A stretch of 34,106 nt of DNA, taken from the UHGV virus genome UHGV-0112930; one strand, 5' to 3'. Position 1 is the stretch's first letter. Each line of letters starts with the position of its first letter. The notes under the pieces are model-generated. The model was not told the origin of the DNA. It saw only the letters and a list, made by a program, of their open reading frames with translations, and did no database searches. This stretch comes from a virus. Shown here one piece after another: positions 16,311-34,095 of this stretch. The position numbers and the translations under genes were made by a program.

Positions 16311-16961
16311 TCAGCGGCTGTCATTGCGCAGTCTGCGCTCCAGCTGCTGTTTGTCTTTTTTCACGCCACAGCGGGGATCGAGCTGTAACGCATGGTTGAG
16401 ATGATTAAGGGCGGAAGCCGGGTTGCTTTCACTCAGGACAGCGCCAATCGCTTTATGCAGACGCGCCCGTGACTGGTCCGGCATATCCAGACCGTCTGTC
16501 AGCTCCAGCGTCTGCAGCAACAGATCGGCATCAAAGCCGGTGGCGGCAAGCATTGCGCTCTGCGCGGCGTCTGCCATTTCCTCTGCCAGCACGGTCTGCA
16601 CGTTGCGGTTACCCAGCGGCATCACCCAGCCATGACGCAGGGCATGACGCCCAATCTCCAGCGCCCCGGCATAATCTCCGGCATCAATGCGCCACAGCAT
16701 CACGTACATCAGCACGTCATCCTGTTGAGCGCCTCCGGCAGCCAGGACGCCCTCCGCCCAGGCGGCATATTTCGGCAGCAGCTCCACCTTGATTTCCGCT
16801 TTTTTCACCGTGGACTGAACGCCCTTGAGACGGCGGCGGTCTTCCGCCAGTTGCAGCAGCATCAGGTCATAGCCCGACGCGTGGCGAACACTGCCGCCCT
16901 CGCGGGCGGCCTGTTCAGCCTGAACGCGCAGGCGATGCTGCCGTGCGGGACTCAGGCTCAT
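16311..16961 (-). CDS. M: Terminase endonuclease (small) subunit M (P2 gpM-like)
   Basis: 216-aa ORF in the P2 M position between N and L. Confidence 0.85.
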   Translation of the reverse strand: MSLSPARQHRLRVQAEQAAREGGSVRHASGYDLMLLQLAEDRRRLKGVQSTVKKAEIKVELLPKYAAWAEGVLAAGGAQQDDVLMYVMLWRIDAGDYAGALEIGRHALRHGWVMPLGNRNVQTVLAEEMADAAQSAMLAATGFDADLLLQTLELTDGLDMPDQSRARLHKAIGAVLSESNPASALNHLNHALQLDPRCGVKKDKQQLERRLRNDSR

Positions 16962-19015: not shown

Positions 19016-20782
19016 ATGAACACCACACTGACACCCGCAGATCTCGATCCCCGTCGGCAGGCCATGCTGCTGTACTTTCAGGGATACCGCGTAGCCCGCA
19101 TTGCTGAAATGCTGGGCGAGAAAGTTGCAACCGTTCACAGCTGGAAAAAACGCGACAAGTGGGGTGACTATGGGCCGCTGGATCAGATGCAGCTCACCAC
19201 CGCCGCACGCTACTGCCAGCTCATCATGAAGGAGCACAAAGAAGGGAAAGATTTCAAAGAGATTGACCTGCTGGCGCGCCAGTCGGAGCGCCACGCGCGG
19301 ATCGGCAAGTTTAACAATGGCGGCAACGAAGCCGACTTAAATCCTAACGTCGCCAACCGCAACAAGGGCCCGCGCCGTCAGCCGGAAAAGAATGTCTTCA
19401 CCGATGAACAGATTGAGAAGCTGGAAGAAATCTTCCATTCCTCCATGTTCAACTACCAGCGCCACTGGTGGGAAGCCGGAAAAACCAACCGCATCCGCAA
19501 CCTGCTGAAGTCACGCCAGATCGGCGCGACCTTTTACTTTGCCCGTGAAGCCCTGATTGACGCCCTGCTTACCGGACGTAACCAGATTTTCCTTTCTGCC
19601 AGTAAGGCACAGGCTCACGTCTTTAAGCAGTACATCATCGACTTCGCCAAAGAAGTCGAGGTGGAGCTGAAAGGCGATCCGATGGTGCTTCCTAACGGAG
19701 CCACGCTTTACTTCCTCGGCACCAATGCCCGCACGGCCCAGAGTTACCACGGCAACCTGTATCTGGATGAATATTTCTGGATACCGAAATTCCAGGAGCT
19801 GCGCAAAGTGGCTTCCGGTATGGCTATTCACAAAAAATGGCGACAAACCTATTTTTCCACGCCATCCAGCCTGACACACAGTGCTTATCCGTTCTGGTCC
19901 GGTGCACTGTTCAACCGTGGGCGCAACAAAGCTGACAAGGTGGACATTGACCTGTCCCACAGCAATCTGGCCCCCGGCCTGCTGTGCGCAGACGGGCAAT
20001 ACCGCCAGATAGTCACCGTAGAAGATGCGGTGCGCGGCGGCTGTAACCTGTTCGACCTTGACCAGTTGCGCATGGAGTACAGCCCGGACGAATACCAGAA
20101 CCTGCTGATGTGCGAGTTCGTGGACGATCTCGCGTCCGTGTTCCCGCTCAGCGAACTGCAGGCGTGCATGGTGGACAGTTGGGAAGTCTGGACCGACTTT
20201 CATGCACTGGCCCTGCGCCCGTTTGGCTGGCGCGAGGTGTGGATCGGTTATGACCCGGCAAAAGGTACGCAGAACGGCGACAGCGCCGGATGCGTGGTGG
20301 TGGCACCGCCAGCCGTGCCAGGCGGTAAGTTTCGCATTCTTGAGCGTCACCAGTGGCGCGGGATGGACTTCCGTGCCCAGGCGGACGCCATCAAAAAACT
20401 GACTGAACAGTACAACGTGACCTATATCGGTATCGACTCGACAGGTGTCGGTCACGGGGTTTATGAGAACGTGAAAGCGTTCTTTCCTGCCGTCCGGGAG
20501 TTTGTCTACAACCCCAACGTTAAAAACGCCCTGGTACTCAAGGCCTACGACATTATCAGCCACCGCCGTCTGGAGTTTGACGCCGGACACACCGACATAG
20601 CGCAGTCCTTTATGGCAATCCGTCGCTCCACCACCGCCAGTGGCAACCGCCCGACCTATGAAGCCAGCCGCAGCGAAGAAGCCAGCCATGCCGATCTGGC
20701 CTGGGCAACGATGCACGCACTGTTTAACGAACCGCTGCAGGGCGAATCCGCCAATACCAGCAATATTGTGGAGATTTTTTGA
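19016..20782 (+). CDS. P: Terminase ATPase (large) subunit P (P2 gpP-like)
   Basis: 588-aa ORF; translation recognised as P2 P-like large terminase. Confidence 0.9.
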   Translation: MNTTLTPADLDPRRQAMLLYFQGYRVARIAEMLGEKVATVHSWKKRDKWGDYGPLDQMQLTTAARYCQLIMKEHKEGKDFKEIDLLARQSERHARIGKFNNGGNEADLNPNVANRNKGPRRQPEKNVFTDEQIEKLEEIFHSSMFNYQRHWWEAGKTNRIRNLLKSRQIGATFYFAREALIDALLTGRNQIFLSASKAQAHVFKQYIIDFAKEVEVELKGDPMVLPNGATLYFLGTNARTAQSYHGNLYLDEYFWIPKFQELRKVASGMAIHKKWRQTYFSTPSSLTHSAYPFWSGALFNRGRNKADKVDIDLSHSNLAPGLLCADGQYRQIVTVEDAVRGGCNLFDLDQLRMEYSPDEYQNLLMCEFVDDLASVFPLSELQACMVDSWEVWTDFHALALRPFGWREVWIGYDPAKGTQNGDSAGCVVVAPPAVPGGKFRILERHQWRGMDFRAQADAIKKLTEQYNVTYIGIDSTGVGHGVYENVKAFFPAVREFVYNPNVKNALVLKAYDIISHRRLEFDAGHTDIAQSFMAIRRSTTASGNRPTYEASRSEEASHADLAWATMHALFNEPLQGESANTSNIVEIF

Positions 20783-21807
20783 TGGGAAAGAGTAAGAAAA
20801 ACCGCGCAGCGGCGATGAATCAGATCCAGCATAAAAGCCAGACTTCAGCCGAAGCATTCAGCTTCGGCGATCCCGTTCCTGTTCTGGACCGTCGCGAACT
20901 GCTGGACTATGTGGAATGCGTACAGATGGACCGCTGGTATGAGCCGCCTGTAAGTTTCGACGGCCTGGCGCGAACATTCCGCGCCGCCGTACACCACAGC
21001 TCACCGATTGCAGTAAAGTGCAACATTCTGACCAGCACCTATATCCCTCACCCGCTGCTCAGCCAGCAGGCTTTTTCACGTTTTGTGCAGGACTATCTGG
21101 TATTTGGTAACGCCTACCTGGAGAAACGCACGAACCGCTTCGGTGAAGTTATCGCCCTTGAACCTGCGCTGGCAAAATACACCCGACGCGGGTTAGACTT
21201 GGATACCTACTGGTTTGTGCAATACGGCATGACTACGCAGCCGTATCAGTTCACGAAAGGCAGCATCTTTCATCTGATGGAACCGGATATCAACCAAGAG
21301 ATCTACGGCCTGCCCGGTTATCTTTCTGCCATTCCGTCAGCCCTGCTCAACGAGTCCGCCACGTTGTTCCGCCGTAAGTATTACATCAACGGCAGCCATG
21401 CAGGTTTCATCATGTACATGACCGATGCCGCGCAGAACCAGGAAGATGTGAACAACCTCCGCAATGCGATGAAAAGCGCCAAAGGTCCAGGCAATTTCCG
21501 AAACCTGTTTATGTACTCGCCTAACGGCAAAAAGGACGGGCTTCAGATTATCCCGTTGTCAGAGGTCGCAGCGAAGGATGAGTTTTTGAATATCAAGAAC
21601 GTTAGCCGGGATGACATGATGGCGGCGCATCGTGTGCCGCCGCAAATGATGGGGATTATGCCTAATAATGTTGGGGGGTTTGGGGATGTAGAGAAAGCCA
21701 GTTGCGTTTTTGTTCGTAACGAATTGATGCCGCTACAGAAACGGCTACAGGAACTAAATAGATGGTTGAAAGATGAAATTATCCGTTTTGCGACATACTC
21801 ATTATGA
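20779..21807 (+). CDS. Q: Portal protein Q (P2 gpQ-like)
   Basis: 342-aa ORF overlapping the P stop by 4 nt; translation recognised as P2 Q-like. Confidence 0.9.
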   Translation: MMGKSKKNRAAAMNQIQHKSQTSAEAFSFGDPVPVLDRRELLDYVECVQMDRWYEPPVSFDGLARTFRAAVHHSSPIAVKCNILTSTYIPHPLLSQQAFSRFVQDYLVFGNAYLEKRTNRFGEVIALEPALAKYTRRGLDLDTYWFVQYGMTTQPYQFTKGSIFHLMEPDINQEIYGLPGYLSAIPSALLNESATLFRRKYYINGSHAGFIMYMTDAAQNQEDVNNLRNAMKSAKGPGNFRNLFMYSPNGKKDGLQIIPLSEVAAKDEFLNIKNVSRDDMMAAHRVPPQMMGIMPNNVGGFGDVEKASCVFVRNELMPLQKRLQELNRWLKDEIIRFATYSL

Positions 21808-21839
21808 CGACAATATGTTCGCTGAACAGTAAAATATCA

Positions 21840-21866
21840 AGAAGGCCTCTTACAAGGCCTTCTTTT
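21840..21866. terminator. Bidirectional rho-independent terminator between convergent Q and the 582-aa cargo gene
   Basis: Hairpin agaaggcc-tcttacaa-ggccttct (8-bp stem) followed by TTTT on the plus strand, and by a moderately T-rich run on the minus strand. Confidence 0.55.
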
Positions 21867-21868
21867 AG

Positions 21869-23617
21869 TTAGAATGCGGATTTGATTTTTTTCTCAAATG
21901 CCTCATATACAGGCTGGTTCATTTGGGCCGTTGCAGTAATAAGCTGTGAAAAATTTGATATACAATCTTTAACTTTTGTAGGACTTTTCAACCCTCCTTC
22001 AACCAGTGCAGGCAGCAACTGATTACTTAAAGCCAGACACACATCTACAATTGGCTCCCAAATACTTTCAGCCTGAGAAGGAGAGACTGTACTTCCAAAC
22101 GAAACTCTAAATAAATTAGGAACGGGACGGCCCAAAAAGTTTTCCAAACATTCGGCAATAGCCGAGCACAATAAAGGTATTGAACCACGATGCCTGAGAT
22201 ATCCCAATTGAGCGCTATCATTTTTTGAAAGAGTATCTTTCTTTGCCAAAGCTATTTTCTTGTTCTCAATACACCGCATGAGAGAATACGCACAAACAAT
22301 ATGTGAAGCTTTTGTACTGTCATTAAAAATCTTAGAATAATGAGAGTCATTAGTCCAAATTGCAGATCGCTGATTATAAGCTACCGTCGGCTCTCCATGG
22401 AAACTCATCAAAGCTTGACCAACAGTATAAGAAGGCAGTAGATTAGTTTTTCGACGAATGACACTTTCAGCACCTCCTCGTCTTCCTCCATCATATTCAG
22501 CATCAGGAATAGAAGCAAATTCATTTTTAAGTCGTTTTTGAATTTTGTCTGTGCTTCTGAAATCAGATGCTTCAACTTTATTCTGACTGTTATTATACTG
22601 AATTATATTCTGAATTAGATCAGCATCCGCATCTTTGACTTTTATAAATCTAGCTTGGACTTTAACTGATTCTGGAGGTAATCGTGGCAGCGTTCCTAAA
22701 GCACCTGTTGTCTGTGCTCCATTAACTATTGACATCCCTCTGATTTCAAGATTCTTTGATGCTTCATTGAATTTATATTCATGAACCAAAACAGTTACGC
22801 CATTATTGTATGCCCAAAATTCTGATGCTGAATTTTCCGCACTGTTACGGATACCATTATTGATATTTGAATCAGATGACCTTGATCCAAGGTAGTCTCT
22901 AACATTTGCTGAAAATATTTTTAATTTATGCTTTTTGTACGCTCTAGCTAAATCTCTTCCCTGAATGGTAGTACAGAATGCATTCCAATTATCTCCTTTT
23001 ATTTCGTAGCCACCATCACTGACCTTAATATTGAAAATCTCATCAACCAGTATTGGTGATAGTGATTCACTATACCATTCCGTCAACTTTTCAGTGCCTA
23101 CCTCCATTGCATGCACTTGTATTTTAGCATCTTCAAAATCATGTTTTAAAATAGTTGTTGCTGTCTGCTGAACCGTAATTAGCTCTTGAGCCACATTTGT
23201 TGAAGATGGTAAGTTATGAACATACCAAACGTACAGAGTTTTAATTTTCCCTTGTTTGATTGATGTCCGTATCTGTTGAGCAGAAGATTTTATTCTATCG
23301 GGTACATCATGCAAATCTCTTTGCAGAAGCCATGCTAAAGCAATATTAAGATCACTCGCTTTATTTGCTGGAGCTTCCTGTCTATCTTTGCTTGAGAAAT
23401 AGCATTGAGCAAGTACAGCAAATTCTTCTTCTTCATTAATATACACAAGGTCACATTTCTTATCGTCATGTCCATCGGTAATGGACTCTGCTGCGACACT
23501 ATCAATGTCATCAATTCTAAAATGTAATGCTAACGCAAACAAAGCCAGTCCATTATCACCATACGATTTCAAATCTTCTCTTGCAGAATAGGCTTGGTTC
23601 CAGGTACTCATTATCAC
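21869..23617 (-). CDS. Large uncharacterised cargo protein (582 aa), candidate anti-phage / abortive-infection-type protein
   Basis: Long uninterrupted ORF in AT-rich DNA, unlike the GC-rich phage core, inserted between the Q terminator and the cos site. No P2 structural counterpart at this position. Contains NVRDYLG, EFWAYNNGVT and IVNGAQTT motifs. Confidence 0.7.
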   Translation of the reverse strand: MIMSTWNQAYSAREDLKSYGDNGLALFALALHFRIDDIDSVAAESITDGHDDKKCDLVYINEEEEFAVLAQCYFSSKDRQEAPANKASDLNIALAWLLQRDLHDVPDRIKSSAQQIRTSIKQGKIKTLYVWYVHNLPSSTNVAQELITVQQTATTILKHDFEDAKIQVHAMEVGTEKLTEWYSESLSPILVDEIFNIKVSDGGYEIKGDNWNAFCTTIQGRDLARAYKKHKLKIFSANVRDYLGSRSSDSNINNGIRNSAENSASEFWAYNNGVTVLVHEYKFNEASKNLEIRGMSIVNGAQTTGALGTLPRLPPESVKVQARFIKVKDADADLIQNIIQYNNSQNKVEASDFRSTDKIQKRLKNEFASIPDAEYDGGRRGGAESVIRRKTNLLPSYTVGQALMSFHGEPTVAYNQRSAIWTNDSHYSKIFNDSTKASHIVCAYSLMRCIENKKIALAKKDTLSKNDSAQLGYLRHRGSIPLLCSAIAECLENFLGRPVPNLFRVSFGSTVSPSQAESIWEPIVDVCLALSNQLLPALVEGGLKSPTKVKDCISNFSQLITATAQMNQPVYEAFEKKIKSAF

Positions 23618-23694
23618 TCCTTAGTAATAAAGTTTTAGCGAAGGTTATCTCTAAGAAGGTACATTTTCAATTCCATTTATCCCTCCAGCGCGCG

Positions 23695-23713
23695 CTCGTA
23701 TCCCCGCCACGCC
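23695..23713 (-). other. Putative cos site (cohesive-end sequence, 186/P2-like)
   Basis: Reverse complement reads GGCGTGGCGGGGATACGAG; the first 13 nt equal the phage 186 cohesive end GGCGTGGCGGGGA as remembered. Orientation matches Q being the cos-proximal gene. Confidence 0.5.
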
Positions 23714-23762
23714 TGCCCGCTTTATGTAGTGGTTTTCATGCACCTGCATGATCTACGCAAAA

Positions 23763-23784
23763 GCCCGCCAGAACTGGCGGGCCT
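23763..23784 (-). terminator. Possible rho-independent terminator (minus strand) downstream of the lipoprotein gene
   Basis: Hairpin gcccgccag-aa-ctggcgggc followed on the minus strand by TTTTG. Confidence 0.4.
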
Positions 23785-23886
23785 TAACACAAAAGATCCT
23801 CAAACGATCATGCGATCTCATGCAGCATAGACATGCGCGTTTATGCAGAATGTGCAAAATCGTAACATACTCAGTAAGCGTGAAAC

Positions 23887-24564
23887 CTAGAACGTGACAG
23901 CCTTGTCAAAGCCAGAAATAATTGTATAAGAAATAGACGAGTTATCAGCCTTGTTCACTTTGAACTTGGCACCTTTGTAAGCGATAACATCACTTCCCTT
24001 AGAATCTACAGAAAAATCTGTTGTAAATGCTGCACGAGCCATATCGTTTGCAAATTCACGATAGGTGAACTTCATTACACCGCCTGCATTTCCATTGTAT
24101 TCGATAGTCTTAACCAATGAATTACTCACTCGACACAGCCCATCAGGAACACGTTTGATAGAAATTTCTGATGCAGTATAAGAAGTGCCATTTGGCGGTG
24201 ATATCTCATTTTTTGCAGCATCGTAGCTAACATAATCAACATAGTTACCGATTTGCCCATAGAGATTTTTTAACGCAACAGCTTGAGGGTTATGATAATT
24301 GCGGTAAATTCCATTCCCCTCACTGCAATATGTACCAGCAGCGATAGAAGACAATGCACCATTAGCCGCACCAAGTTCTAGTACGTCCGTTTTAAATCCA
24401 GTAGCAGATGTGATAATGGGATCGCCCATGTAGGCGGTAGCACTTTGCCCAATAGCTGGCTTCACCACTTCAATAGCAGTGATATTTCGGTTAGAAGCAT
24501 GTGGCACGCAACCAGTTAGGATTACAGCAAGAGATATTGGTAACGCTACATTATTAATTTTCAT
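23887..24564 (-). CDS. Lipoprotein of unknown function (225 aa), phage cargo
   Basis: Start taken at MKINNVALPISLAVILTGC (lipobox LTGC) rather than the extended ORF start at 24618, which would run through an upstream terminator hairpin. AT-rich gene between cos and the SOS module. Confidence 0.7.
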   Translation of the reverse strand: MKINNVALPISLAVILTGCVPHASNRNITAIEVVKPAIGQSATAYMGDPIITSATGFKTDVLELGAANGALSSIAAGTYCSEGNGIYRNYHNPQAVALKNLYGQIGNYVDYVSYDAAKNEISPPNGTSYTASEISIKRVPDGLCRVSNSLVKTIEYNGNAGGVMKFTYREFANDMARAAFTTDFSVDSKGSDVIAYKGAKFKVNKADNSSISYTIISGFDKAVTF

Positions 24565-24598
24565 TTTTAGCCTATTATTCTTTTCTTGACAAAAAACA

Positions 24599-24623
24599 AG
24601 GCGATATCTGATTGACATCGCCT
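24599..24623 (-). terminator. Rho-independent terminator downstream of the dinI-like gene
   Basis: Hairpin aggcgat-(11 nt loop)-atcgcct followed on the minus strand by TGTTTTTT. Confidence 0.5.
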
Positions 24624-24677: not shown

Positions 24678-24911
24678 TCAATGCAGCCAGCTGTCGTCTT
24701 CCCACACCTTCTGCAAAATTTTCATCACTTGTTTTCTTTCTTCGTCCAGTTGCAGTCCGGTCAGTTCCACACCGTTAGAGCTACCTTTACGGATACGGAT
24801 TACCGTTTTGGGATACAGGGGGCGCAGATTGCGGTAAAGCTCGGATTCAAGGGCGTCCAGGGTAGACTGGCTAATCTTCTGCTCTTTATCGATCATTATT
24901 TCAATGCGCAT
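24678..24911 (-). CDS. DinI-like damage-inducible protein
   Basis: MRIEIMIDKEQKISQSTLDALESELYRNLRPLYPKTVIRIRKGSSNGVELTGLQLDEERKQVMKILQKVWEDDSWLH resembles E. coli DinI (MRIEVTIAK...ISEILQETWESADDWF). Start at the internal ATG, preceded by GAGGTG. Confidence 0.85.
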   Translation of the reverse strand: MRIEIMIDKEQKISQSTLDALESELYRNLRPLYPKTVIRIRKGSSNGVELTGLQLDEERKQVMKILQKVWEDDSWLH

Positions 24912-25151: not shown

Positions 25152-25171
25152 CACTGTTTATATTTACAGTA
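25152..25171 (-). promoter_or_regulatory. LexA (SOS) box overlapping the promoter of the 62-aa/dinI-like operon
   Basis: cactgtttatatttacagta contains CTGT-N8-ACAG with an AT-rich spacer, close to the consensus TACTGTATATATATACAGTA; it overlaps a TATACT -10-like hexamer on the minus strand. Confidence 0.7.
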
Positions 25172-25264: not shown

Positions 25265-27679
25265 TTAATACAGGTTCCGCCACTTATCATCTTCCTGCAA
25301 ACGCTGGTTCCGATAGAAGATACGCAGGCCTGCTCCTGACGGAATACTGCCGCCGCGAAGGAGTAAATCGACCTCTTTCTCGCTGCCATCAAATCCTCTG
25401 GACTTCAGTTCATAGACGAGCTGCTGTCGTTGATGGTCTGTAATTCGCTGTTTGTAGTCTCTACGCCGTTTCGGTTTCACCAGGCGTAACCTTGCAGCCA
25501 GTTCCCGGCGCTCTTTTTTGTTCATACAGTGCAGGTAATCGTGCAACTCCTTGTCATCCATGCGGGTGATATCCGTTCTGGTATCCCCATCAGCTGATTT
25601 GTCTTTCCCTTGTTGGTACAAATTTTCAGCAAGGGGACAGTTATTGCCACGAGTCCAAGGGGCGCAAGCGCCCTGGTCGGCTACCGCCTCCTGAACGTCA
25701 ACGGCCTTACGAACCATTTTCCACTTCACTGCATGAGTGCAGATCTTGCCCTCTGCAATGGGTGACCAGATGCCATAAATACGAATGCCGTGATCGCCAT
25801 AGGCGGTCGGCTCTTCGTTGATTTCATAAGCGGTTCTGATAAGGTGATATTTACGGGGAACCAGTACGCCGCCCTGCTTCATGATGTAGGTGGCAAAACA
25901 ACCAGCATCAGCAGCAGCCAGGATGGCATCAAGGCGCGGGTCATCCAGTATCGGCGCACCTGCTTTTTTGTCACCCTGTTGCCTTGCCGCCTGACCAGCC
26001 AGCAAGCGAAGTTCACGGTAAGCCTGACGTCCCGGAATACCAAAGAAGCGGAACTGCTGAACACGATGCAGAGACGCCCAGGCATTAACGTATTCGGCGT
26101 TATCACGCAGGGATTTACCCGTTTCCTTGCTGATCTCGCCAGCCAGACCACGCCCGTCAATGTTCTTACTGATGTATTTCGCGATGTAGCTTGTCGGTGT
26201 TCCTTTGCGCGGGTTAATCAGCTCAGACTTAAAGCGTGGCCCCGTGTTGTTGCCCAGCTCCTCGCGGTCTACACGGATGGCAAACTTACGCAGTAATGCA
26301 GTGATGGCGCGGCGGTCTTTTTTACGCATGAAGCACATGAGATGCCAGTGCACAGTACCGTCATGGTGCGGCTCAGCCACCCGCACGCCATACCAGCGCA
26401 ACCCGGTTTTGTGCATTGCCTTACGAAATGCAGCAAACATGCCGACCATATAATCGCTGCTTTGTCTTACCGTCGCATTTGTCCAGGTCGGGTTGGGTCT
26501 GCCGTTGTTGAGCGTGGAATGGAAACGTGACGGACAGGTGATAGTGTAGAAAACGGCGCAGTCACCGCGCATTTCCGCGATAAGCTCCAGACCTTTAACA
26601 CAGGCCATCATCTCATTGCGGCGATGCGCAGGGTTGCTGCTGCTGGCGTTTACCACATCCTCCATGTCCAGCGTGTCGCCGTCTTCGTTCACCAGTTCAT
26701 GAGAACGGAAAAACTCCAGCGACTTACGGCGCTGCTCACGTTTATGCATCACGGCTTCATAGCTGACATAGGGAGATGCTTTTTTGCTGACCAGGCAGAC
26801 AGCACGCAACTGCTCTTCCCGCCATTCGCAACGCATCTTCCATAATTTCCGATACCACCAGTCGGCGCACAACATACGCGCCAGCGAACCCGGAATGAGT
26901 TCATAGGGCACGGGTTTACGGCGGTTTCTTTTCCGACGGAGTTGCTCAAACGCAGGTGGGATGACATCCAGACGCAGGGTTTCCGCCGCCACCTTTTCCC
27001 ATGTCTTGCGGATTTCTTCTGGCTTAACGTCATCGGTGGCATACAAATCGCCACAAGCTGCATCAAGGCACATGCTCATATGCGCAGCTACCAGGGTGGA
27101 CAGGCGTTTCACCTGATCCTGACTCATTTCAGGCAGGATCAGCAGGCCCTCCAGCCCTTGATGGCTTGCCATAAAACGGAAAGAAGCAGACAGCTGACTG
27201 TCACGTACACAATCCAGTCGCTCCAGACATGGCTTAATCGTCTCACGCAAATAGCGGGAATAAGCCTTTGGCCTGCCCAGGCTGCTGAAGTATTCGATAC
27301 GTTGCATCAGCGGCTTGCTAATATGGGTGGGCTGGGCGCTGACGTCCGCCAGAATGACCATGTCCGGGTTAAAACGCTGCTGTTCATGCGCCAGCTTTGC
27401 CCGGCTAATGAGCTTATCCTGCTCCATTTCGCGCTGGACAGGATCACGAGATTCATTAAAGAAATAACGCTCCCAGACCTGCTCACTCAGTGCATCGCGG
27501 CGCAGCTGTTCCTGCTCATTATCGGCAGCGTACAAAGTGATCAGGTTTAAAAGTGCAGACTCCGGAGCAACTTCCGCCGGGTCCAGATAAGGGTTAATGG
27601 CCTTTTTCGGGCCGTTCCATGAAAATGCTGCAGCGGCCTCGTTAAAGCCGCTAGAGTTGCTCATATCGTCATGACTCAT
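25265..27679 (-). CDS. A: Replication initiation endonuclease A (P2/186 gpA-like rolling-circle initiator)
   Basis: 804-aa ORF with HUH-type motif [11 protein letters not shown] and tyrosine pair [10 protein letters not shown]; translation recognised as P2/186 A-like. Confidence 0.9.
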
Positions 27680-28533
27680 ACACGCACCTCGTACACAGCA
27701 GAACTATCCACGCCACACGAAGGATCAAATCCCACCCAGCAGCGCGCCCCGGAAACAGCAATGATTTCTGTTGCAGATTTACTCTCGCCAGCCGACACGC
27801 CGATGCTGCGTTTTGCCTTGATGTAGTGGTGAGTGAAATTTCGATACAGCGAACGGATCAGGGATGTGTCACTGTTAGAAACAATGACTGGATGACCTTC
27901 TGATGATCGATATTCAAGAACAGATGCCAGGTGATACTGGTCATCTTCAGTGAAGCCGTCAGTGTGATAGCCGGAAAACGTACCGTCATAAGGCGGATCG
28001 CAATACACCACATCCCCCACCTGCAGCATCGCCAGCGTTTCATCAAAGCTGGCGCAGATAAACGTTGCTCGCTGGGCTTTCTCTGCAAATGCGCGAATTT
28101 CTTTTTCAGGGAAATACGGATTTTTATAATTACCGTATGGAATGTTGAAATGCCCGCTCTTGTTATAACGACATAACCCACGGTAACCATGACGATTGAG
28201 ATACAGGAAATATACCGCTTTCATGAAATCAGTAATTTCAGTGGAGTAATTAAACTCCTGCCTTATGTTGTAATAAGCCACCTCCCTGTTTGCTTCCTCA
28301 AATAAAGCTCTGGCACGAGATATAAACGCCTCGCAATCAGCAGCAACCTTTTTATAGAGGTTGATTAAATCAGGATTAATATCCGCAACAAGATAGCTGG
28401 GGTAATCCGTCTCCATCATCACAGCACAGGAACCCGCGAAAGGTTCAACCAGTCGCGGGCCAGCAGGAAGATGTTTTTTCAGTTCGGACATAATGGCAGT
28501 TTTATTACCCGCCCATTTCAGGATGGTGCTCAT
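27676..28533 (-). CDS. DNA adenine methyltransferase (Dam-like, N6-adenine MTase)
   Basis: Motifs [32 protein letters not shown]; strong resemblance to E. coli Dam. Start taken at [11 protein letters not shown]; stop overlaps the A start by 4 nt. Confidence 0.85.
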
Positions 28534-28832
28534 ACAGCACCTCCTGCAATAACATATCCTAAAGCTTCTAATGGGGTTAATGGGCGAATTGATAGCATCA
28601 CCCATTGTTCTGAAACTGCCATGACGTCATTAACCGGAAGCACATGAGAGATAACAGCGGCCCATTCCCTACCCGTAAATACGCCATGCTTCCATTCGCA
28701 AAGAGAAAGAACATCACCAACTTTATAACCACGATCGTCTTTACGAAGTTCAGCCGTCTTTTGACCTGCAACCACAGCGTTGAAATACTTAGGTGCAATT
28801 TTTAATTGATGGATACGCACTGCCCTTGTCAT
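28530..28832 (-). CDS. DUF3850 / ASCH-like small protein
   Basis: [47 protein letters not shown] matches the remembered DUF3850 pattern; start taken at the internal ATG. Confidence 0.6.
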
Positions 28833-30897: not shown

Positions 30898-31042
30898 AAG
30901 GCAACATTCCTTCTAGATATGGCTTGTGGCGAGCCGTTGTTTGTCGTGATTAGTAGTGAAGGCTCCAAAAGAACACTTCTGGTTCAACTTTAAGATCGCT
31001 TTTGGAATCTGTCAACGAATTTTGGATTTCTTTGGAGGACTC

Positions 31043-31612
31043 GTGGATTTCAATAGCGGCGGTAAGAAAGCCATAGAACGTTTAGTTGAAGCATATGGGT
31101 TCGGTACCCGTCAGGCTCTCTGTGATCATTTAGGTGTTTCTAAGAGCACCATGGCAACGCGCTATATGCGTGATATTTTTCCAGCAGATTGGGTAATCCA
31201 GTGCGCCCTTGAAACGGGCACCTCGCTTAATTGGCTAACAACAGGGCATGGTTCAAAGCAAGCATCAGCAAATACAAATACTATAGAAGTAGAAAAATAT
31301 TTATTGTCTGATGGAGCATTGCAGAAAGACGGTTTTTATATTTTTGATAAGGGATTTCTACCCTCTACGTTTAAAAAACCTTTTGTCATCACAGATAACA
31401 ATTCTGAATTTATTTGTGATAAAGAATTTGATGATATACGTGATGGTAAATGGGTAATAAGTATTGATGGCGAAATAACGATCCGTGACATTACTCGTTT
31501 ACCCGGTGGAAGAATCTTCGTCGAGGGTGGAAACAGAGCCTTCGAATGCAAGATAGAAGACATTGAAATAATTGGTAAAATTATAAGTTTAACAGTCAAG
31601 TATGTTAAATAG
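31043..31612 (+). CDS. cI: CI immunity repressor (186 CI-like)
   Basis: ...ERLVEAYGFGTRQALCDHLGVSKSTMATRYMRDIFPADWVIQCALETGTSLNWLTTGHG... resembles 186 CI as remembered. Start proposed at GTG 31043, preceded by GGAGGA; the ORF-track ATG at 30956 would leave no room for operators. Confidence 0.75.
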   Translation: MDFNSGGKKAIERLVEAYGFGTRQALCDHLGVSKSTMATRYMRDIFPADWVIQCALETGTSLNWLTTGHGSKQASANTNTIEVEKYLLSDGALQKDGFYIFDKGFLPSTFKKPFVITDNNSEFICDKEFDDIRDGKWVISIDGEITIRDITRLPGGRIFVEGGNRAFECKIEDIEIIGKIISLTVKYVK

Positions 31613-31819: not shown

Positions 31820-32007
31820 CTTTTGCTTTTATATCTGCGTCTAAAATAAAAATGAGCCGCAGGTTAACCGCAAAAGTTACATGCTCACATAGCAAAAAGA
31901 ATAGCCAACTTCATTATGGCTTCAGTGAGATGTATGGTCGTAGGATTTCATACATTGACACTGGTTATACATACAGTAAAAATGCTCTCTACTGGAGGGC
32001 ATCTTTT

Positions 32008-33039
32008 ATGGCAGTACGAAAACTCACCACAGGGAAATGGCTTTGCGAATGTTACCCCGCCGGACGAAGTGGGCGTCGTGTGCGTAAACAATTCGCCACC
32101 AAAGGCGAAGCTCTGGCTTTTGAGCGTCACACGATGGAAGAAACCGAATCAAAGCCCTGGCTGGGCGAATCAGTGAATCGTCGAACCCTGAAAGACGTGG
32201 TTGAGCTATGGTTCAAACTACATGGTAAATCTCTGACTGCTGGACAGCATGTCTATGACAAATTGCTGCTGATGGTTGACGCCCTAGGCAATCCTCTTGC
32301 AACCGATCTCACCTCTAAAATGTTTGCCCACTATCGAGATAAACGCCTGACAGGCGAGATCTACTTCAGCGAGAAATGGAAGAAAGGAGCAAGCCCGGTC
32401 ACCATTAACCTGGAGCAAAGCTATCTAAGTAGTGTTTTTAGCGAACTATCCCGTCTGGGCGCATGGTCGTATCCGAACCCACTGGAGAACATGCGATAAT
32501 TCACCATCGCAGAAAAAGAGATGGCATGGCTTACCCATGAGCAGATTGTTGAATTACTGGCTGATTGCAAACGTCAGGACCCAATTCTGGCACTGGTAGT
32601 TAAGATATGCTTAAGCACAGGCGCACGCTGGCGTGAAGCCGTAAATCTTACCCGCTCACAGGTGACTAAATACCGAATTACCTTTGTCAGAACGAAGGGG
32701 AAGAAAAACAGAAGCATCCCTATCAGTAAAGAGCTTTACGAAGAGATCATGGCGCTTGATGGGTTCAATTTCTTCACAGACTGCTATTTTCAATTTTTAT
32801 CCGTGATGGAAAAAACGTCTATCGTGCTCCCTCGCGGTCAACTGACACACGTTCTGCGCCATACGTTTGCGGCGCATTTCATGATGTCGGGTGGAAATAT
32901 CCTTGCTTTGCAAAAAATCCTCGGACATCACGACATAAAAATGACCATGCGTTACGCACATCTGGCACCGGATCACCTGGAAACTGCATTACGGTTTAAT
33001 CCGCTGGCAACACTACCAACATCAACAGCAACTGTTTGA
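32008..33039 (+). pseudogene. int: Tyrosine integrase (P2/186 family) interrupted by an in-frame TAA
   Basis: N-terminal part MAVRKLTTGKWLCECYPAGRSGRRVRKQFATKGEALAFERH... ends at TAA 32497..32499. The same frame continues seven codons later with MAWLTHEQIVELL... through a catalytic region with ...HVLRHTFAAHFMMSGGNILALQKILGHHDIKMTMRYAHL. Confidence 0.7.
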
Positions 33040-33099
33040 AAATGCGTGTTCTGCCCTATTGAGCTAATATTCTTTTTTCTTTCACATGGAGCACGACCA

Positions 33100-33519: not shown

Positions 33520-34056
33520 CTACCCAGCAATCCTCTCAACCATCCTCAAAATCTCCTCGCGTGATAGCGGCTTACGGTCGGTGACAAAATGCAGCGTCAT
33601 CCCCTCAATAAACGCATCAAGCGCGCGGGCGGTTCCGGGTTCAAACCATTGTTCGAGCGTTTGTTGACTGCGCTGCATCCAGTTTTGCATTACCGTTTTT
33701 AAGAGCGGTTTTCGGCTAGCCAGCGCGTAGAGCTGGTACATCAGCTCCATATTATCCGGCGTTGCGACCTGTGAGCTGTAGATCATATCGGTGATAGCCT
33801 GGCATGCGCCTGGAGCATCACTAACATCGCTAAAAAATGCCTGATATTGCCGGGACATGATCTCAGTAAAACGGCTGAACGCCTCCAGCAACAACTCATC
33901 AATTCCTGAAAAATAGTAGGTCATCGATCCCAACGGCACCCCGGCAAGGGCAGCAATTTTGCGGTGTGTAACAGCATGTATTCCGTAAAGTTTCACCGCC
34001 TCCAGCGTGGCCTGGATAATTTTTTCTCGCCGTTGCGGATCGTTAGCGCGACGCAT
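33520..34056 (-). CDS. TetR-family transcriptional regulator, probable host chromosomal gene (RcdA/YbjK-like)
   Basis: N-terminal TetR HTH ...[42 protein letters not shown]...; start taken at MRRANDPQ; the RcdA/YbjK assignment rests on memory only. Confidence 0.75.
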
Positions 34057-34077
34057 GTCATTTCCTCTCTCTGCAAT

Positions 34078-34095
34078 TGTGTACAAATGTACACA
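34078..34095. promoter_or_regulatory. Perfect palindromic candidate operator upstream of the TetR-family gene
   Basis: TGTGTACA-AA-TGTACACA, 22 bp upstream of the TetR start codon. Confidence 0.4.

Follow-up and report, generated by a model that had tools for sequence, protein, structure and literature searches.

The intergenic gap at 23618-23886 of the window, by which we mean the whole 34,106-bp stretch of virus genome UHGV-0112930 analysed here, most probably houses an intact cos packaging signal of a Fels-2-like prophage (P2 family, Peduoviridae). The signal is compact (23688-23838) and lies between two slots for cargo genes; we put the probability of this reading at roughly 0.9. The gap measures 269 bp and separates two minus-strand ORFs, one of 582 aa (21869-23617) and one of 243 aa (23887-24618). 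The window represents a P2-family prophage whose map runs opposite to the way in which P2 is usually drawn, with the gene order tail; N, O, M; P; Q; 582-aa gene; intergenic gap; 243-aa gene; DinI-like gene; gpA. In database searches it came nearest to Klebsiella prophage records (97.5% identity over 4.6 kb), with Fels-2, RE-2010 and SEN8 next; the host was an enterobacterium, probably a Klebsiella.

Identification and position of the cos site

The cohesive end and the core genes that frame it are the following:

16311..16961, minus strand: small terminase subunit, homologue of P2 gpM (Pfam Phage_term_smal, 2e-40), expected to recognise the cos module
19016-20782, preceding the portal gene: terminase large subunit, gpP (Terminase_6N/6C and gpP-like Terminase_5)
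20779..21807, plus strand: portal gene, homologue of P2 gpQ (Pfam Phage_portal, 7e-18), left border of the Q-side slot
23695..23713, minus strand: 19-nt cohesive end, GGCGTGGCGGGGATACGAG, which aligns with the annotated P2 cosL and 186 cos
25265..27679, minus strand: replication gene, homologue of P2 gpA (Pfam Phage_GPA, 2e-126), right border of the gpA-side slot

The genome is P2-like, with gpM and gpP terminase genes recognised by Pfam, and in it the site has the portal gene Q on one side and the replication gene A on the other. Pfam assignments were also obtained for M, L, N and O, the head genes matching Phage_cap_P2 and Phage_GPO. When the right and left ends of P2, P4 and 186 were joined and then aligned with the reverse complement of the window, the same succession of elements was seen in P2, P4, 186, Fels-2 and the window: TGCAT repeats, TGCATnAAAACC, AAGyGGGCr, the 19-mer and then GCGCGC alone. 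At the junction the P2 and window lines read

P2: aagcgggcgGGCGAGGCGGGGAAAGCACtgcgcgc
Window: aagcgggcaGGCGTGGCGGGGATACGAGcgcgcgc

An alignment of this kind had been proposed as a check in a preliminary description of the region, and it bore the assignment out: a 55-bp core matched the reference phages at 42-44 of 55 positions and the cohesive end coincided with the annotated P2 cosL and 186 cos. The 19-mer is of the GGCG(A/T)GGCGGGGA... type and shares 15 of 19 positions with 186 (four differences) and 14 of 19 with P2. Its last 6 nt are unlike both P2 and 186, and the variant is common to the whole Fels-2 group, whatever the cargo. The terminase cut positions given here for this prophage are putative, as they were transferred by homology from P2, 186 and E. 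coli HS phage 1.

It might be thought that the true cos lies elsewhere and that 23695-23713 is a chance match in GC-rich DNA. We consider the probability of this to be virtually negligible. No point in its support was found, and the searches contradict it. GGCGWGGCGGGGA is present as a single exact copy in the 34-kb window (23701-23713, minus strand, by motif scan). A profile made from the cos regions of P2, P4 and 186 alone gave one nhmmer match, at 23839..23688 on the minus strand (E = 9e-19, profile positions 5-156), and revealed no other cos in the window, the next matches having E > 4. Moreover, about 150 bp of flanking sequence are homologous to P2, P4 and 186, and the site is in the canonical position between Q and gpA. 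The preliminary description had named 23695..23713 as the only cos-like sequence, and both the exact motif and the profile match proved to be unique. A second match to GGCGWGGCGGGGA, at 2036-2048 with 2 mismatches, was dismissed as being at chance level.

The same description had placed cos about 1.9 kb from the Q stop. This was correct, since the gap between the stop (21807) and the start of the 19-mer (23695) is 1,887 bp, as compared with 167 bp between the 19-mer and the Q stop in P2. In 186 this slot is empty, with 176 bp from the 19-mer to the W stop.

Extent and internal structure of the cos module

The packaging signal is composed of the following parts:

23688..23838, minus strand: complete conserved cos module of 151 bp, from -125 to +25 counted from the first base of the 19-mer in P2 orientation
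23688..23694, minus strand: Q-side conserved stretch, GCGCGC after one variable base, seen in the alignment and in the conservation profile
23714..23742, minus strand: gpA-side part of the 55-bp P2/P4 core, TGCATGAAAACC...AAGCGGGCA
23756..23785, minus strand: putative terminator hairpin within the module, an 11-bp GC stem followed by UUUUG (-26.3 kcal/mol, z = -3.9)
23806..23847, minus strand: distal cluster of YATGCR repeats, with two further copies at 23737-23750

The borders of the module were taken from a conservation profile in which the segments of relatives were anchored on the cos 19-mer (126 distinct segments from 130 relatives). Information content was 1.2-1.9 bits per position within -125..+25 and about 0.1 bit on either side. 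On the Q side, P2 and P4 had nothing in common past the 7 bp at 23688-23694 in the alignment. It had been stated earlier that recognition in P2 needs sequence on both sides of the cut. For the Q side this is true in a weak sense, as the need there appears to amount to about 7 bp, at which both the sharing between P2 and P4 and the conservation end. Judged by conservation, the cos signal is strongly asymmetric, with about 125 bp conserved on the gpA side and 7 bp on the Q side. The cargo on the Q side therefore lies outside the signal.

The 55-bp core occupies 23688-23742. TGCATT through GCGCGC counts to exactly 55 bp, and the segment matches P2 at 42, P4 at 43 and 186 at 44 of the 55 positions. 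A 55-bp core of P2 and P4 is attributed to Ziermann & Calendar (1990) in the papers that cite them (PMC5694545, PMC9594776), and PMC9122126 describes the P2 terminase as packaging both P2 and P4, the core cos signal being common to the two. The cos architecture of these phages is that of the window, with TGCAT repeats on the right-end side, the 19-mer and GCGCGC, and in them, too, accessory defence genes adjoin cos.

CATGC/GCATG occurs 5 times in 173 bp, whereas 0.31 copies would be expected at the window-wide rate (a 16-fold enrichment), and the alignment places TGCAT motifs at equal positions in P2, P4 and 186. The YATGCR repeats are probable binding elements for the small terminase subunit. 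The hairpin at 23756-23785 was missed by a consensus terminator scan and confirmed by folding, and it is kept in relatives. It would end transcripts of the DinI/lipoprotein operon ahead of the cut site. A hairpin is found at the equivalent spot in the Fels-2 group, 186 and P4, with different stem sequences, and is lacking in P2. In 186 the terminator t95b is annotated upstream of cos. P2 differs from the window in carrying cargo on the gpA side only (old and tin) as well as in having a module devoid of a terminator hairpin; old and tin, the neighbours of that module, are transcribed away from cos.

Comparison with a mapped cos site and with named relatives

An experimental anchor is provided by E. 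coli HS phage 1, an inducible prophage whose cos was mapped to GGCGTGGCGGGGATACGAG by read starts and PhageTerm (Zünd et al. 2021, PMC8008629, Suppl. Table 4). Its cos module and that of the window are identical at 151 of 151 positions. The gene order is also the same, namely gpA, a small ORF, DinI, a lipoprotein gene (225 aa), cos, cargo and Q/portal. What differs is the Q-side cargo, for which E. coli HS phage 1 has an unrelated gene of 463 aa, and the homology to the window breaks 7 nt past the 19-mer. PMC8008629 also deals with Fels-2, for which induction was shown by outward-oriented reads at att; the cos mapped in that paper is the one of E. coli HS phage 1.

Fels-2 is 100% identical to the window over 23688-23840. 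Together with RE-2010 and SEN8 (Felsduovirus) it has the same cos variant and 98-100% identity across the module, while the one or two genes between cos and Q in these phages are unlike the cargo of the window: a 565-aa gene in Fels-2 and two genes spanning 2.2 kb in SEN8. In phage Cartapus the slot is taken by a DUF4145 gene. SEN8 forms virions and was sequenced from them, and its annotated cos is identical to the 19-mer of the window (PMC5427200). On the gpA side SEN8 has a gene for a DNA-binding protein, which again is unlike the window.

These comparisons bear on the proposal that the packaging signal either tolerates cargo insertions or has been rebuilt around them. Tolerance holds, albeit in a trivial sense. 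Rebuilding does not, as the module is the same as in E. coli HS phage 1 and the cargo is outside it. One could imagine that cargo was inserted into the signal itself, which was then rebuilt or adapted, so that this cos would be functionally unlike an ordinary P2-family cos; the 1.9 kb that separate it from Q (167 bp in P2) and the deviation of the last 6 nt of the 19-mer from P2 and 186 would fit such a history. It is, however, a very improbable one. A module identical at all 151 positions works in E. coli HS phage 1 next to different cargo, Fels-2 has the same sequence over 23688-23840 without a single difference, the conserved block has an equal extent in P2, P4 and 186, and the variant 19-mer is found throughout the Fels-2 group regardless of cargo. 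An ordinary Fels-2-type cos with cargo on either side of it is the reading that we prefer.

The Q-side slot

The region between Q and the cos module contains the following elements:

21839..21864: GC-rich hairpin lying where the Q and AIPR genes converge, a terminator-like match with an 11-bp stem
21869..23617, minus strand: Q-side cargo, 582-aa AIPR/AbiU-like candidate abortive-infection gene, GC content 37%
23618..23687, minus strand: leader and probable promoter of the AIPR gene, cassette-specific and outside cos

The flanks of cos had been described as a 582-aa gene and a lipoprotein gene. Both identifications stand: the former is AIPR/AbiU-like, the latter has a lipobox, and both are accessory genes of low G+C content. 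The product of the 582-aa gene matched Pfam AIPR (2e-34), PADLOC AbiU (1e-34) and phrog_1841, 'Abi alpha-like' (5e-246). Its true start is probably the ATG at 23611, which has AAGGAG ahead of it. The Q-side slot of the window has a G+C content of 37%, as compared with 51% for Q. Fels-2, E. coli HS phage 1, SEN8 and Cartapus lack the AIPR-like gene and have the slot filled by other genes.

Homology to Fels-2, RE2010 and E. coli HS phage 1 ends at 23688, and the 70-bp leader is missing from relatives with other cargo. The leader reads TTGAAA-17 nt-TAACCT and includes the AAGGAG ribosome-binding site; on the strength of these motifs, 23618-23687 probably holds the promoter of the AIPR gene. At the other end of the slot the hairpin at 21839-21864 is likely to be a terminator shared by the two convergent genes. 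It is placed like tQ/tW of P2 and 186, in which a terminator is annotated right after Q/W. Ungapped conservation anchored on the Q stop yielded no left border of the slot; the Q C-termini and the stop estimates vary.

The gpA-side slot

Between the cos module and gpA the window carries

23887..24618, minus strand: gpA-side cargo, lipoprotein gene, 243 aa (lipobox LTGC; phrog_1353; GC content about 40%)
24678..24911, minus strand: DinI/Tum-like gene of a 186-type SOS operon (Pfam DinI, 9e-23; phrog_189)
25154..25169: perfect LexA box, CTGTTTATATTTACAG, upstream of the small ORF and the DinI operon

In the 243-aa ORF the lipobox MKINNVALPISLAVILTGC follows the second Met, and this Met (24564) is probably the real start of the lipoprotein, which is identical at 226 of 226 positions to an E. 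coli HS protein starting MKINNV. In a tblastn search the gene was found in just 10 of the 160 related loci and is therefore accessory. The 100% protein identity with E. coli HS is seen although the nearest relatives of the window overall are Klebsiella prophages, which suggests recent cross-genus sharing of the cos-side cassette. Homology of the 243-aa gene to orf97 of 186 was considered on account of their like position and equal length (732 nt) and was rejected (BLASTP E = 4.5); the last gene before cos in the window is not an Orf97 homologue.

The operon, which lies downstream of gpA and includes a LexA box and a DinI/Tum-like gene, mirrors p95-tum-orf97 of 186. The right arm of 186 is built as in the window, with gpA, a LexA-controlled promoter, the Tum/DinI gene, a last gene, a terminator and cos. 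The LexA box is the sole zero-mismatch CTGT-N8-ACAG in the window and its position fits p95 of 186, while the DinI-like gene has an equal size and position in Fels-2, SEN8 and E. coli HS phage 1. The LexA box and the Tum-like gene, taken together with a 186-type CI repressor gene (30956-31612), predict SOS-inducible control in the style of 186. Directly upstream of gpA lies a gene for a D12-class Dam-like adenine methyltransferase (27676-28605, minus strand), as in Fels-2, SEN8 and E. coli HS phage 1.

Distribution of the layout and content of the slots

The layout was surveyed in 160 loci with Q relatives, 80 from bacterial contigs (one genome per species) and 80 from viral contigs; these loci were picked by Q similarity and are not phylogenetically independent, which applies to all counts given here. 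Gap lengths refer to the 131 relatives with a recognisable cos and a Q that is at least 70% identical. The distance from Q to cos had a median of 1.68 kb; it was below 300 bp in 11 of them, lay between 300 and 1000 bp in 18 and reached 1 kb or more in 102. Most members of the lineage thus carry cargo between Q and cos (a gap of at least 300 bp in 120 of the 131). A view of this layout as unusual is not supported, and 'displaced', the word of the preliminary description, fits the majority of the lineage. In the species-dereplicated set, 48 of 57 loci had a Q-cos gap of at least 500 bp. On the other side of cos, the gap to gpA had a median of 1.56 kb, and both slots were filled in 74 of 111 loci.

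The cargo is highly diverse. The longest ORFs of the Q slot fell into 62 families in 122 loci, and on the gpA side 46 categories were distinguished, one of them being 'no ORF'. Despite this variable content the identity of Q among the viral contigs was 94-99%. Domains detected in the Q slot of relatives were TIR, PIN_12, AbiLi, AriA, Old-like, GmrSD, retron RT, AIPR, Schlafen, SEFIR, DprA and RES. These are typical of defence systems, and by its domain content the slot would be mostly of the defence type. The mean G+C content of Q-slot cargo in relatives was 36.9%, as compared with 51.9% for Q. The longest Q-slot ORF was on the strand convergent with Q, i.e. directed away from the genome end, in 118 of 122 cases; the accessible portions of the literature on P2-family hotspots contain no statement of this regularity.

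That foreign genes accumulate here is established. In PMC5694545, which cites Dodd & Egan (1996) and Nakayama (1999), the interval from cosL to Q is a recognised hotspot. The title of Dodd & Egan (1996), which concerns 186 and the retron Ec67 and Ec86 prophages, speaks of DNA replaced between cos and the terminator after the portal gene, i.e. in the Q-side slot of the window. The interval between gpA and gpQ is presented as a cos-proximal defence hotspot of P2-like phages by Rousset et al. (2022, PMC9122126), and a later study (NAR 2026, PMC13586616) confirms the hotspot in thousands of P2-like prophages. As far as the text of these two papers is available, it describes the same interval with defence systems and rapid turnover and treats it as one hotspot. 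In the window, by contrast, the gpA-gpQ interval resolves into two slots with the 151-bp cos island between them. The window and its relatives otherwise show what is expected of the hotspot, with variable content between near-identical core genes and candidate anti-phage genes. Since both slots are in the literature, the layout as such is already known. What is new here is only the sharper delimitation, a cos island of 151 bp that separates the two slots.

State of the prophage

In the integrase region (32005-33039, plus strand) there is an in-frame TAA at 32497-32499, a position at which AAA (Lys) is found in Klebsiella phage 4LV2017 and E. coli phage 813R9. This nonsense codon splits Int_N from the catalytic domain. 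Unless it is a sequencing error, the prophage is probably unable to excise alone. Consequently cos may never be used here, save by excision in trans or if the TAA is indeed an error. The integrase C-terminus diverges from relatives after ...NPLATLP, at about 33020-33045, which is probably the att junction. Downstream of the integrase follows a TetR/RcdA-like host gene (33520-34086, minus strand), as in the flank of the 813R9 record.

The nonsense codon raises the question of whether cos is an unused relic in a defective prophage kept for its cargo alone, in which case the layout would say nothing about packaging tolerance in this element. We hold this to be unlikely, though far from negligible. 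Against the nonsense codon stand a cos module free of decay (151 of 151 positions) and head and terminase genes that are full length with strong Pfam matches, and a change of one base may have arisen very recently or reflect a sequencing error. As an equal layout is functional in relatives, the general conclusion, namely an intact signal between two cargo slots, stands even if this copy is defective.

A model for packaging and cassette exchange

We propose that gpM (16311-16961) and gpP (19016-20782) act together as the terminase, which would attach to the YATGCR repeats on the gpA flank of cos before introducing the staggered nicks that leave the 19-nt 5' end GGCGTGGCGGGGATACGAG (23695-23713). 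The first slot extends from 7 bp past cos to the probable terminator that follows Q. In the window it contains the AIPR/AbiU-like candidate defence gene, which is low in GC, probably has a promoter of its own and is transcribed away from cos. The second reaches from gpA to about 125 bp before the cut and comprises the LexA-controlled small ORF, the DinI/Tum-like gene and the lipoprotein gene, an operon that may end at the terminator within the module. Exchange of the cassettes presumably takes place by recombination within the conserved sequences that border them, namely Q, the cos module and gpA.

Packaging would be unaffected because the slots are outside the module. A longer cos flank improved cosmid transduction (PMC9594776), and since flanking DNA can therefore modulate efficiency, 'unaffected' should be taken to mean viable, not necessarily equally efficient. 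A more speculative idea concerns the sharp boundary 7 bp past cos and the orientation bias of the cargo. Cleavage at cos might drive the capture of cassettes, if DNA ends made by the terminase or arriving by injection served as entry points for illegitimate recombination, or a position at the end of the virion DNA might give the defence genes an advantage in timing when the DNA enters the cell. We regard this as a rather improbable conjecture.

Implications

As a discovery the finding carries little weight: in Fels-2-like phages, as in other P2-like ones, the cos variant, the cut site and the presence of cargo on both sides are already on record. A cos module delimited to 151 bp is useful for the annotation of prophages, for setting genome start coordinates and for the design of cosmids and transducing particles. 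For the P2 family, cargo cassettes become easier to extract systematically once the gpA-gpQ hotspot is treated as two slots whose borders are fixed.
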